Shown: piece by piece, positions 55,697-58,854 of the stretch
How the letters are laid out: each line of letters starts with the position of its first letter
Numbering within the stretch: position 1 is the stretch's first letter
Source: Patescibacteria group bacterium
Lineage (GTDB): Bacteria; Patescibacteriota; Dojkabacteria; J137
Direction of reading: 5' to 3'
Length of the DNA stretch: 64,000 bases
Assembly (NCBI GenBank): GCA_963169855.1
Contig: CAUJCN010000002.1
Span: 267,288 to 331,287 of the forward strand
Notes under the pieces: model-generated
The model's input: only the letters and a program-made list of their open reading frames with translations
The model's database searches: none
What the model was told of the DNA's origin: nothing
Program-made: the position numbers and the translations under genes

Positions 55697-57031
55697 CTAT
55701 TGCTCTTCTACGTTTCTTTTAAAACTTGGAATATCAAATTTGTAGAATACAAGACCAACGATTATCAGCAACATTCCTAACAAGATTGGATCAAGTTCAT
55801 CAGAAATAATAGCAGTTCCTGGTAAGTAACCACCTGTTGCTGTTGTATCTGGGTCGCTAGTTGTTGTTCCTGAAGTCTCTTCTTCTGGAATTCCAGTTGT
55901 TACAGAAACAACTGGGTTTGGTGTTGCGATATCAACTGTAAAGTATCTTACTCCAGAATCAGTTGCTTGTGCTCCGTTATGTTTTCTAATTGTCCAGCAG
56001 TATTTCTTTCCATTTTCTACTGTTAAGTTGAATGATCCAGTTGGACCTCCATCTACGGTGCCTACTCTACTATAAGCACTGTTATTGTTTGTATTTGTAG
56101 GGCAAGCTTCGTTAAGACCTACAGTCATCATTCTTACTCTAAACTGATTGTTCTGATTAGCACACCCTTCTCCAAAGGTTCCGTTTCTATCCCAAGATAA
56201 TGTAGCCGTTGTTGTATTTAGAACTGCCCCATTTGCTGGGCCAGTCAGTCTAGCTGCTGTAGGTGCTGTTGATGTGCAAGTTGATGTGTTTCCTCCTCCA
56301 CTGTTATTCCCTCCGGCTGTTGCTGTTGCTGTTGCTGTTGCTGTTGTATCTCCTCCTCCAGCAGTCGCAGTAGCAGTTGAAGATCCTCCGCAAATTGAAG
56401 TACAATCTGACCCACTTCCATTCGCCGAACACTTGGCACCTCCTGCACAATTACAGCAGAAACCTGAGGCACACTCCGTAACTCCTCCTTGAGTACATTG
56501 TCCCCCAGCTGGTCTACAAAACTCGTTTAGAGCTAATGCTGCATTACTTCCAGCAGCATTTCCGTTAATACATGAGTATCGTTGAAAGTTAGTTCCAGAA
56601 TTACACAAAGATGACCCCTCATTAATAACTTGTCCTCCTGGAGCTGAACATCGAGGCGTTGTTTGAGGTTCACATGTATTCCCAGTTAAAGTTGCATTGA
56701 CACCTCCTGATGCAGGACATGAGTATTCTTGATAATTTGTAAAACTATCACACCTTGTTTGTCCTGGTCCTACTGTTCCAGTTTGCCCTACTATAGTACA
56801 TACTGTAGGAGTTGGCACCCAAATACATAAGCCATTACAATTACCTTCAGTTCTTACAGAACAAATCTCATCATTGCCTGGTTGAATACCTTTACAAACA
56901 CCTGCTCCAGCAGCACTATCGTCAGGTGCTTGATTATTATTAAGTTGAACTGCTAAGAAAAGTGCGAGTCCTCCAAGAACTACAGTAGCAATAAGAAGAA
57001 TAAACAGCGTTACTTTTTTACGGTCGTACAT
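55697..57031 (-). CDS. Cys-rich, Thr/Gly/Ala-rich cell-surface protein with FN3-like domain and C-terminal LPGTA sorting-signal-like motif (paralog 1)
   Basis: 444 aa. N-terminal signal anchor. About 40 Cys in the N-terminal half. (TA)n/(GG) low-complexity region encoded by a (gctgtt)5 repeat. Conserved ~110-aa domain 'LSWDRNGTFGEGCANQNNQFRVR...KYCWTIRKHNGAQATDSGVRYF'. C-terminus 'LPGTAIISDELDPILLGMLLIIVGLVFYKFDIPSFKRNVEEQ'. Confidence 0.75.
   Translation of the reverse strand: MYDRKKVTLFILLIATVVLGGLALFLAVQLNNNQAPDDSAAGAGVCKGIQPGNDEICSVRTEGNCNGLCIWVPTPTVCTIVGQTGTVGPGQTRCDSFTNYQEYSCPASGGVNATLTGNTCEPQTTPRCSAPGGQVINEGSSLCNSGTNFQRYSCINGNAAGSNAALALNEFCRPAGGQCTQGGVTECASGFCCNCAGGAKCSANGSGSDCTSICGGSSTATATAGGGDTTATATATATAGGNNSGGGNTSTCTSTAPTAARLTGPANGAVLNTTTATLSWDRNGTFGEGCANQNNQFRVRMMTVGLNEACPTNTNNNSAYSRVGTVDGGPTGSFNLTVENGKKYCWTIRKHNGAQATDSGVRYFTVDIATPNPVVSVTTGIPEEETSGTTTSDPDTTATGGYLPGTAIISDELDPILLGMLLIIVGLVFYKFDIPSFKRNVEEQ
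56317..56346. repeat. hexanucleotide tandem repeat (gctgtt)x5 within a coding region
   Basis: Encodes the 'TATATATATA' stretch of paralog 1. The minus-frame poly-Q and plus-frame 'AVAVAV' ORFs are frame artefacts of it. Confidence 0.7.
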
Positions 57032-57273
57032 ATATAATCTTTTTCAAAATATTTATACACATTAAACTATTTTTTAATAAAGAATGCAACCAACGGCGAA
57101 GATTCGAAGACTTAAGATAAAAAGATTCAAATTAAGATTAAATGCACAAGACTTAAAACGAAGATGTCATGGTGAGACTCTCGAACCATACATCGATATT
57201 TCTAAGATTCGATGTTGTAACTAGAGCGGATTACCAATTACTAGTTACTGATCACCGATTACCGACACCCGTG

Positions 57274-58854
57274 TTAGTTTTCGAAAACGTTTTTGCTTCT
57301 AACGTCGTAATGCAATCGGATTCCTACCAAAATCATCAATCCTGCAATAAATACAACAATTACTGATGTAGGGTTATCGATTGCAGTGCCAGGTAGATCA
57401 CCTCCGACATCTCCTGTTGTAGACCCTGAAGTTTCTTCTTCATCTATTCCTCCCGTCGGATTAACAGCTGCTAGGTTTACAACAAACTCTCTTACTCCAG
57501 TGTCTGTTGCTTGTGCACCGTTATGCTTTCTGATTGTCCAACAATATTTTGTGTTGTTAGTCACATTTAAGTTAAATGTTCCTGATGGTCCTCCATCTAC
57601 TGTTCCAATTCTTGCATACGGACCAGAATTACTTGTATTTGTCGGGCAAGATTCTGTAACTCCAACAGTTGTTGATCTAACTCTAAATTGATTGTTTTGA
57701 TTTTCACAGCCTTCACCAAAAGATCCGTTTCTTTCCCAGGACAGGGTTACTGTAGCAGTATTAATTACTGCTCCGTTACCTGGTGAAATTAATTTAGCTT
57801 TTGTTGGTGCTGTAGTAGTGCAACCTGTGCTGGATTGCCCTGTAGTTGCGTTGGTTTGCCCGGTAGTATCTGTTGTCTGGCCAGCAGTTCCCGTAGCAGT
57901 TGTTCCTCCAGTTTGTGTCGCTCCTCCCGTTTGTGTTGTCCCTCCAGTCTGAGTTGTTCCACCTGTCTGTGTTGTGCTTCCCGCTTGGCAAGTTCCGGAA
58001 ACACAAGATAAATTTGAACAACAAGAATTACTTGCTCCACAAGATTGCCCTTGAGTTGCACATTGAGAGGCCGTTGTACAAGAACCACCTGGGTCTACTA
58101 CATTGCCGTTGTTACACAGGCATCTGCATAAATTTGCTCCAGACAATGTAATTTGACTACTACCAGTAGGACAGGATTGAGCGGTATCACAAACTATAGG
58201 GCTGCAGGTATTGTTGCTACAAGAAAGGTTCGCATTACAAGAATTCCCTGTACAGCATGTCTGGCCTTGAGCTCCACATTGAGTGGTTGGTGGAAAACAT
58301 ATACCACCATTTAAAGTATAGCCTTCACAACAACCCATCAGATCTGCAGGATTACCTGGATTATTGCATTTGTACAACAGTTTGGTACTTGGTCCGCAGT
58401 AATCACTACCATCTTGTATAGTTACATCCGGCACACCAGGAACTGTGCAGCGATTACTTTGGGTAGCTGCTGTCCAGTTACATACTCCTGATAATGTTCT
58501 TGCTGATGAATCGCAAGAAGACGGAACTGCCGTGTAGTCCTCACAACTAAAAGTAAAACAGTAACTAGGTGCATCGGACTTTCTAATGCATGCAAAAAAT
58601 GGAGATCCTGCACCGGTTCCAGCACAACAAGCACCAGTCGAAAATCGAAAGATTATAGGATTACACCCTGATTCAGTTAAACCCACAGAACATGTACTAG
58701 ATAGCTCGCTGTAAGTGGGATTACAAGTTCCCGCTCCTGCTAAACTATCATCTGGAGATTGGTTGTTAATAAGTTGAAAAGAAAAGTATAGAGAAAGTCC
58801 ACCAAGAACTGTAATGGCGATTAAAAGAATATATACGAGTGACTTTCTGTTCAT
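57274..58854 (-). CDS. Cys-rich cell-surface protein with FN3-like domain and C-terminal LPGTA sorting-signal-like motif (paralog 2)
   Basis: 526 aa. Same N-terminal signal anchor ('VLGGLSLYFSFQLINNQSPDDS' vs 'VLGGLALFLAVQLNNNQAPDDS'). Cys-rich. 'TQTGGT' x4 repeat. The conserved domain is about 75% identical to paralog 1. C-terminus 'LPGTAIDNPTSVIVVFIAGLMILVGIRLHYDVRSKNVFEN'. Confidence 0.75.
   Translation of the reverse strand: MNRKSLVYILLIAITVLGGLSLYFSFQLINNQSPDDSLAGAGTCNPTYSELSSTCSVGLTESGCNPIIFRFSTGACCAGTGAGSPFFACIRKSDAPSYCFTFSCEDYTAVPSSCDSSARTLSGVCNWTAATQSNRCTVPGVPDVTIQDGSDYCGPSTKLLYKCNNPGNPADLMGCCEGYTLNGGICFPPTTQCGAQGQTCCTGNSCNANLSCSNNTCSPIVCDTAQSCPTGSSQITLSGANLCRCLCNNGNVVDPGGSCTTASQCATQGQSCGASNSCCSNLSCVSGTCQAGSTTQTGGTTQTGGTTQTGGATQTGGTTATGTAGQTTDTTGQTNATTGQSSTGCTTTAPTKAKLISPGNGAVINTATVTLSWERNGSFGEGCENQNNQFRVRSTTVGVTESCPTNTSNSGPYARIGTVDGGPSGTFNLNVTNNTKYCWTIRKHNGAQATDTGVREFVVNLAAVNPTGGIDEEETSGSTTGDVGGDLPGTAIDNPTSVIVVFIAGLMILVGIRLHYDVRSKNVFEN
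57894..57965. repeat. 18-bp tandem repeat x4 within a coding region
   Basis: 'cc(a/c)gt(t/c)tg(t/a)gt(c/t)g...' units encode (GGTTQT)4 in paralog 2. Confidence 0.6.

Follow-up and report, generated by a model that had tools for sequence, protein, structure and literature searches.

A Saccharibacteria protein family with hypervariable cysteine-rich heads and a conserved LPxTA-type tail: candidate substrates for sortase-type anchoring

How are two adjacent cysteine-rich proteins of a Saccharibacteria genome held at the cell surface, and is the LPGTA pentapeptide near the C-terminus of each a signal for a sortase, part of a lasting membrane anchor or a fortuitous resemblance? The genes concerned, here termed p1 and p2, are on the minus strand of a 64,000-nucleotide stretch of contig CAUJCN010000002.1 (positions 267,288 to 331,287; this whole stretch is referred to as the window), and their open reading frames (ORFs), of 444 and 526 codons, lie exactly where an earlier reading made from the letters alone, the sequence-only reading, had placed two neighboring genes (Table 1). 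Sortase-type wall anchoring is the best single explanation for the features described below, p1 and p2 then being adhesins of a new family, sorted to the cell wall by an LPXTA-type (class-D-sortase-like) signal, and we put the chances of this at about even. The evidence that carries it is the conservation of the tail in diverged relatives, set against which are both the apparent lack of a nearby sortase and a degree of constraint that a disposable signal would not lead one to expect.

The order of parts is the same in the two proteins, namely an N-terminal anchor, a Q[AS]PDDS stretch, a cysteine (Cys)-rich head, a low-complexity linker, an FN3 domain, an acidic or Thr-rich linker, LPGTA, a spacer, a hydrophobic segment and a tail containing Lys and Arg (K/R), with the domain borders having been checked by translation. 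By hydropathy each has two hydrophobic segments, one N-terminal and one C-terminal, the former being long (~22 residues) and followed by QAP or QSP. In a BLASTP comparison of p1 with p2, the C-terminal ~200 residues are 58% identical (E 5e-70), with the N-terminal regions aligning more weakly. The N-terminal anchors had been described as near-identical and the cysteines as about 40 in each protein; the former turn out to be 62% identical (26/42) and the latter to number 24 in p1 and 38 in p2. (A single-sequence AlphaFold model of p1, with a predicted local distance difference test score (pLDDT) of 46, was poor and not used.)

The C-terminal arrangement itself, LPGTA followed by a hydrophobic stretch and a K/R tail, stands as originally described. 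LPGTA is 42 residues from the end of p1 and 40 from that of p2, with 15-16 hydrophobic residues and a 14-residue tail downstream. In the family as a whole, the motif is 39-42 residues away from the C-terminus, an acidic, unstructured linker precedes the motif, the spacer between LPxTA and the hydrophobic segment is of 5-8 residues, and basic residues follow that segment. All 5 of the public proteins matched by the profile from end to end (P0001, which is p1 itself, and P0002-P0005) carry the tail, as LPGTA, LPDTA, LPATA, LPATA and LPETA, and continue through AI[IV]SDELDP to a hydrophobic segment, YKFDF and a K/R cluster. The orthologue tails are also K/R-containing, e.g. YKFDFGKKREVE, and the orthologue of p2 on a related contig, L027, likewise has LPGTA. 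In a 7-sequence alignment, where the motif takes the forms LPGTA (twice), LPDTA, LPATA (three times) and LPETA, the invariant tail positions are the L, P, T and A of the motif, the Ile next to it, a single Gly within the hydrophobic segment and a single Asp beyond it. Both the x position (G, D, A or E) and the preceding linker, in length and in composition, vary among the same sequences.

More distant occurrences extend this. A contig from another Saccharibacteria metagenome-assembled genome (MAG), L004, encodes two tandem Cys-rich proteins without an FN3 domain, which end in LPNTALISDQAD and IPDTAIVSDELDP, each followed by a transmembrane (TM) segment; their motifs are LPNTA (in the protein encoded at L004 181-1242) and IPDTA, and they share the type of N-terminal anchor and may be distant relatives. 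In two further and more distant proteins, P0007 and P0008, an N-terminal anchor of this type and an FN3 domain are present and a C-terminal hydrophobic segment is not, and an LPxT[GA] tail was absent from all other proteins returned by the domain search detailed below. The view that LPGTA is a fortuitous likeness within a C-terminal region of low complexity, and is without a function of its own, derives some credit from the shortness of a pentapeptide and from there being only two proteins with an LPGTA tail in the window. It is nevertheless extremely unlikely, as L, P, T, A and the next Ile are invariant in 7 diverged sequences while x and the linker change, and in L004 the motif is met again in another protein family. 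The tail is thus more than chance.

Adjoining the L004 pair are a 362-residue polytopic protein (L004 3415-4503, minus strand), with a sub-threshold match to ICMT/PEMT methyltransferases, and a 234-residue protein (L004 4627-5331, plus strand) with the same N-terminal anchor type (RLQANQAP) and no C-terminal anchor. Within the window, a giant protein of 2499 residues is encoded at 25378-32877 (plus strand); it contains repeats of the LVIVD and YadA-head types, a Peptidase_G2 autocleavage domain and, at its C-terminus, an H-type lectin domain, and an LPxT[GA] tail is lacking. A 131-residue ORF (24982-25377) with an N-terminal TM segment precedes its gene.

If the tail is a sorting signal, the N-terminal hydrophobic segment would carry the protein through Sec, the Cys-rich head would fold outside the cell with all of its cysteines in disulfides, and the low-complexity linkers together with the FN3 domain would constitute a stalk. 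The combination of [LI]PxTA, hydrophobic segment and basic residues would act as an LPXTA-type sorting signal and hold the precursor in the membrane, and a sortase of class-D-like LPXTA specificity, presumably encoded elsewhere in the genome, would cut after the Thr and link the protein to peptidoglycan. The variable head would then face the ligand, whether on a host cell or in the environment, and plausibly serve as an adhesin. The organism has a peptidoglycan wall, as follows from the genes for a PBP transpeptidase, MraW, MraZ and a LysM-M23 peptidase in the window. Sortases are reported in >50% of candidate phyla radiation (CPR) genomes (PMC6744442).

The proposal of a tripartite sortase-type signal stands in part: the layout is there, and LPxTA is conserved with a free x, but there is no match to a curated LPXTG-anchor model. 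Comparison of the isolated tails with NCBIfam gave sub-threshold matches only, to TIGR04383 (E 0.12), NF006935 (E 0.16) and NF058670 (E 9.1), and the parts matched are in each case the C-terminal, sorting-signal ends of LPXTA/LPXTG proteins. With a hidden Markov model (HMM) built from 27 Bacillus cellulosilyticus anchors, of which more below, p1-type tails rank first among 694 local sequences, though the match is weak (13 bits, E 0.003) and involves the TM part only.

Several observations weigh against sortase anchoring. As the sequence-only reading had noted, no sortase is encoded in the window, there being no Sortase family match in Pfam among its 52 ORFs tested (all those of at least 120 residues save one overlapping ORF, 13542-14009); nor was PF04203 detected in the 4 kb past the window end or in the neighboring DNA of relatives, ~100 kb having been covered in all. 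Anchor models of the PF00746 and TIGR01167 type gave no match with whole proteins at E<=1 or with isolated tails at E<=10. In the window, the tail is confined to the two paralogues. The K/R tails of p1 and p2 are of mixed charge with an acidic end, and the two L004 proteins have, after their TM segments, conserved tails of 35-40 residues with SRSKFE.E.EK in common. The segment following the putative cut site has an omega of 0.02-0.04 vs 0.05-0.11 in the glycolytic neighbors, and such strong constraint is odd for a sortase substrate because a cut-off propeptide would be discarded. The N-terminal anchor is conserved as strongly as the tail.

Many of the same observations are what would be expected of a retained membrane anchor with specific contacts of its helix, where the C-terminal segment is a permanent TM helix and LPxTA-IISDELDP, uncut by any sortase, is a conserved juxtamembrane module for contact with a partner. 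The protein would then be of type I or, were its N-terminal segment to remain uncleaved, a loop anchored at both ends. Between genomes whose glycolytic enzymes are 75-86% identical, the N-terminal 40 residues are 100%, and the tail 97-100%, identical, so that both termini, with the low omega of the tail, are conserved beyond the need of a disposable signal. The conserved tails of the L004 relatives would be cytoplasmic, and in P0007 and P0008 the N-terminal segment is the sole possible anchor; the failure to find a sortase or an LPXTG-anchor HMM match also sits comfortably with it. Against this, what is best conserved across the p1, p2 and L004 types is [LI]PxTA and the next residue, with x free, while the TM sequence differs between types, and both pattern and position reproduce a known enzyme recognition motif for which a plain anchor has no need. 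A retained anchor is accordingly held to be possible, and a serious contender, without being probable.

A further alternative is that the tail is read by an enzyme other than a sortase, whether an exosortase, archaeosortase, rhombosortase, CPBP-type protease or some Saccharibacteria-specific enzyme. The motif, TM and charged-tail layout is indeed common to otherwise divergent Cys-rich proteins, the sortase searches were negative as just described, and the ICMT/PEMT-like polytopic protein (22 bits in Pfam, sub-threshold) adjoins the L004 pair. However, the (exo)sortase-like option raised in the sequence-only reading has no support, the tails lacking a PEP, PGF, GlyGly or invariant-Cys signature and having no match to an NCBIfam sorting-domain model. 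The motif fits the sortase consensus and none of the others, and with the synteny being aldolase, surface gene(s), TIM and Obg, no candidate enzyme is conserved beside the genes. We regard processing by such an enzyme as highly improbable.

The domain shared by p1 and p2, thought to be of ~110 residues with ~75% identity and to have the look of an FN3 or Ig fold, is of ~116 residues and 72% identical, and its assignment as FN3 is confirmed by profile, AlphaFold model and Foldseek. As single sequences, p1 and p2 have no match to Pfam fn3, but the homologous stretch in P0006 is a Pfam fn3 match at 4e-15. A profile made from a 31-sequence alignment of the domain (A4) matches, among Protein Data Bank (PDB) entries, the FN3 domains of titin, neogenin, FN3con, DCC and tenascin, with E values from 3e-7 to 1e-3. 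The AlphaFold (AF2) model of the A4 domain has a mean pLDDT of 93 and a predicted template modeling score of 0.84, and consists of beta strands only, arranged in a sandwich; the best Foldseek matches of this predicted structure in the PDB are FN3 domains (TM-scores of 0.5-0.56). A profile of domain plus tail, run against 1.84 billion representative proteins, returned 128 proteins, most of them large multidomain proteins with the domain set inside, P0006 being one such.

The heads are a different matter. The EGF-like character that had been supposed has no support: there is no Pfam match of p1 or p2 to EGF family models at E<=1, and neither head has a Pfam, NCBIfam or PDB sequence match, so that the EGF-like assignment is rejected for want of any model match. 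A likeness of head sub-motifs (C-x6-C-x5-CC-S...) to hevein or chitin-binding domains was seen by eye and has no Pfam support, and no claim is made of it; a type IV pilin-like N-terminus was also discarded, as the sequence has no G/FTLIE-type motif. The number of cysteines is even in every complete family member. One head can be aligned with another in several alternative ways, at identities of 22-43%, which is what shuffled Cys-rich modules would be expected to show. From the perspective of head folding, a polytopic membrane protein encoded at 49234-49956 (plus strand), with a weak match, just short of the threshold, to thiol-disulfide transporters of the DsbD/CcdA type (PF02683, 23.9 bits), may be pertinent to the folding of disulfide-rich surface proteins, and a thioredoxin-like gene is near the orthologue in the related contig L026.

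That short tandem DNA repeats encode the low-complexity linkers holds good, with 5.2 copies of GCTGTT in p1 and 4.3 of an 18-bp unit in p2, and the L027 orthologue of p2 has a similar TQTGGT array in its linker. The length variation that these had been thought to make likely was not seen: two independent assemblies, ERR10655384, covering both arrays, and ERR10655380 (Logan contig L032), covering the 18-bp array, are 100% identical to the window across the arrays that they cover. Contig L032 breaks at 56317, the exact edge of the GCTGTT array, which could reflect repeat heterogeneity in the reads or a mere limit of assembly. The Logan contigs reached from the two ends of the window were likewise identical to it, and short.

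The contrast between head and anchors is best appreciated from p2 and its L027 orthologue. From the full identity of their first 40 residues, identity falls to 12-47% per 40-column block in the Cys-rich head and returns to 85-100% through linker, FN3 domain and tail, the neighboring TIM, Obg, aldolase, iPGM and PFK of the same two genomes being 75-86% identical. Codon analysis gives the p2 N-terminal anchor an omega of 0.04, in line with that of the tails. The pattern is that of a surface protein with a tip under diversifying pressure and with fixed stalk and anchors. Synonymous divergence (dS) in the conserved parts of p2 (compared with L027 6951-8468) is 0.56-0.83, vs 1.65-1.84 in the flanking glycolytic genes, which hints at recombination or more recent exchange between lineages, or else at codon constraint. 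A more far-reaching proposal is that the LPxTA, acidic spacer and TM module and the N-terminal anchor are both retained, or are read by dedicated Saccharibacteria-specific machinery, and together make up a new system for anchoring and displaying a head that is hypervariable and disulfide-rich and determines which host cell this epibiotic bacterium recognizes, with the low dS being due to exchange of head cassettes between lineages. This is rather unlikely.

How widespread is the family? A scan with a DNA pattern for TAI[IV]SDELDP, of one genome per GTDB species, yielded three true matches (and two chance matches besides), all in MAGs labelled "uncultured Candidatus Saccharibacteria" with housekeeping genes that are ~70-80% identical in DNA to those of the window. 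The 17 matches to TAIxSDELDP in a scan of 241 million metagenome records included no relatives, being unrelated proteins or short out-of-frame ORFs. With the genome scan giving three MAGs and the metagenome scan none, the family is rare and so far confined to one Saccharibacteria clade. When the whole of p2 was compared with a set of 5.8 billion proteins, nothing but the paralogue came back, probably since the candidate list had been saturated by the low-complexity linkers.

In every contig recovered, the surface gene or genes occupy the same place, after PFK, iPGM and class I aldolase and before TIM and Obg, in that order. L027 also has a tandem pair, comprising the 505-residue orthologue of p2 and P0003, the orthologue of p1, and since the former starts 4 bp before the aldolase stop codon and p1 is followed by a strong terminator, p1 and p2 are probably transcribed with the aldolase gene. 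In the window, the space from the aldolase stop to the start of p2 is taken up exactly by a 266-residue ORF without a Pfam match (58855-59655, minus strand), a likely start of which, Met14, would come immediately past that stop. In L027, L026/L006 and L031 the ORF is absent at this locus and aldolase and surface genes are immediate neighbors, so that the ORF has the look of an insertion. A segment at 56916-57140, consisting of ~110 bp upstream of p1 and its first ~115 bp, is 85% identical to L027, the housekeeping genes being 74-80% identical, which suggests that the 242 bp separating the two surface genes contain a conserved promoter or 5' leader of p1. Elsewhere in the window, a 350-residue protein (12734-13786, minus strand) has a sub-threshold match to PrgI, a type IV secretion component of Gram-positive conjugation, and a CarboxypepD_reg-like domain.

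Table 1. Coordinates in the window of p1, p2, their parts and the terminator downstream of p1
Feature	Position	Strand	Extent and composition	Basis or comparison
p1	55697-57031	minus	444 aa, 24 Cys	ORF; same as public protein P0001; orthologues P0002-P0005
p1 N-terminal hydrophobic anchor/signal	56933-57031	minus	aa 1-33	hydropathy; 85% identical to P0003 over first 40 alignment columns
p1 QAPDDS motif stretch, after N-terminal anchor	56897-56932	minus		
p1 Cys-rich head, hypervariable	56390-56896	minus	aa 46-214, 20 Cys	7-67% identity to P0003 per 40-column block
p1 Thr/Ala/Gly linker	56279-56389	minus	holds GCTGTT x5.2 tandem repeat, 56316-56346	
p1 FN3 domain	55931-56278	minus	aa 252-367, 4 Cys	profile matches to FN3 structures; AF2 pLDDT 93; Foldseek
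p1 acidic/Thr-rich linker	55826-55930	minus	aa 368-402	length and sequence vary among relatives
p1 LPGTA	55811-55825	minus	aa 403-407	L, P, T, A invariant in 7 sequences
p1 spacer, hydrophobic segment and tail	55700-55810	minus	IISDELDP; ILLGMLLIIVGLVFY (55742-55786); KFDIPSFKRNVEEQ	omega 0.024 vs P0003
Intrinsic terminator after p1	55640-55670	minus	14-bp stem, 10 G-C pairs, T8	
p2, paralogue of p1	57274-58854	minus	526 aa, 38 Cys	ORF; 505-aa orthologue at L027 6951-8468
p2 N-terminal hydrophobic anchor/signal	58762-58854	minus	aa 1-31	hydropathy; first 40 aa 100% identical to L027 orthologue
p2 QSPDDS motif stretch, after N-terminal anchor	58726-58761	minus		
p2 Cys-rich head, hypervariable	57988-58725	minus	aa 44-289, 34 Cys	12-47% identity to orthologue per block, large indels
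p2 Thr/Gly/Gln linker	57823-57987	minus	holds 18-bp x4.3 tandem repeat, 57899-57975	
p2 FN3 domain	57475-57822	minus	aa 345-460, 4 Cys	72% identical to p1 domain; member of profile A4
p2 LPGTA	57382-57396	minus	aa 487-491	
p2 spacer, hydrophobic segment and tail	57277-57381	minus	IDNPT; SVIVVFIAGLMILVGI (57319-57366); RLHYDVRSKNVFEN	omega 0.041 vs L027 orthologue

Those Saccharibacteria that have been cultivated grow attached to other bacteria, and the proteins by which they recognize their hosts are, to our knowledge, largely unknown. Given a constant stalk and anchor, a fast-diverging tip predicted to be disulfide-rich, a fixed locus and apparent co-transcription with a glycolytic gene, the family is a concrete candidate for the binding of a host or ligand at the cell surface. 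Should the LPxTA tail be a true sortase signal, class-D-like LPXTA sorting would be documented in CPR bacteria and the motif would provide a handle for listing wall-anchored proteins there. Should it not be, the ultra-conserved terminal membrane segments would point to an undescribed mode of anchoring.

Among known systems, a close parallel for the tail is in B. cellulosilyticus, 27 proteins of which have LPXTA(T) anchors that have been assigned to sortase D subfamily 4. These anchors are of 32-42 residues; an acidic and disordered linker leads up to the motif, and a hydrophobic segment and basic tail come after it (PMC3617157). Because of these anchors, Ala at position 5 is a known variant and not new (PMC3617157). 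Shared with the p1/p2 family are LPxTA, the acidic disordered linker, a short spacer, an L-L-x-G...(I/V)-G hydrophobic pattern and basic residues, and the anchor lengths are similar (39-42 residues in the p1/p2 family). What follows the Ala differs, being I-[IV]-S-D-E-L-D-P or IDNPT here vs T-[NST]-x-Y-N there, and the tail of p1 and p2 is weakly basic with an acidic end, unlike the B. cellulosilyticus anchors. TIGR01167 annotates the B. cellulosilyticus proteins and has no match in p1 or p2; the passengers are a Cys-rich head and FN3 domain in the one and glycoside hydrolases in the other, and the partner sortase of p1 and p2 is putative. The SrtC substrates of Bacillus anthracis, BasH and BasI, are class D sortase substrates with LPNTA. 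They have Ala at position 5 in common with the present family, one of the L004 proteins having exactly LPNTA, and differ in organism and in passenger, and in there being no sortase gene beside genes of the p1/p2 family, whereas the genes of class D sortases and of their substrates often adjoin (PMC3617157).

In the same candidate phylum, the TM7 genome RAAC3 is reported to have sortase genes and predicted sorted LPXTG-motif proteins (Kantor et al. 2013, PMC3812714). Those proteins were predicted via LPXTG, and neither an LPxTA tail nor a family with Cys-rich head and FN3 domain nor mosaic evolution is described for RAAC3 (PMC3812714). In the literature on Saccharibacteria and Patescibacteria sortases, LPXTG and cysteine-rich proteins, no description of the present family was found. 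In kind, p1 and p2 are of an already known type, modular surface proteins that are anchored to wall or membrane and bear a tail like LPXT[GA]. The novelty lies in the family itself, for which there is no Pfam or NCBIfam model and which is restricted to Saccharibacteria, the tail [LI]PxTA-I-[IV]-S-D-E-L-D-P with its ultra-conserved hydrophobic segment, and the sharp contrast between hypervariable head and fixed anchors. The broader parallel is with the MSCRAMM-type adhesins of Gram-positive bacteria, which have a signal, a variable ligand-binding head, Ig/FN3-like repeats or stalk, a wall-spanning low-complexity region and a C-terminal sorting signal. The head of p1 and p2, predicted to be disulfide-rich and modular and with no Pfam or PDB homologue detected, sets them apart from these, as does a stalk with a single FN3 domain containing four cysteines, yet the order of parts is the same.

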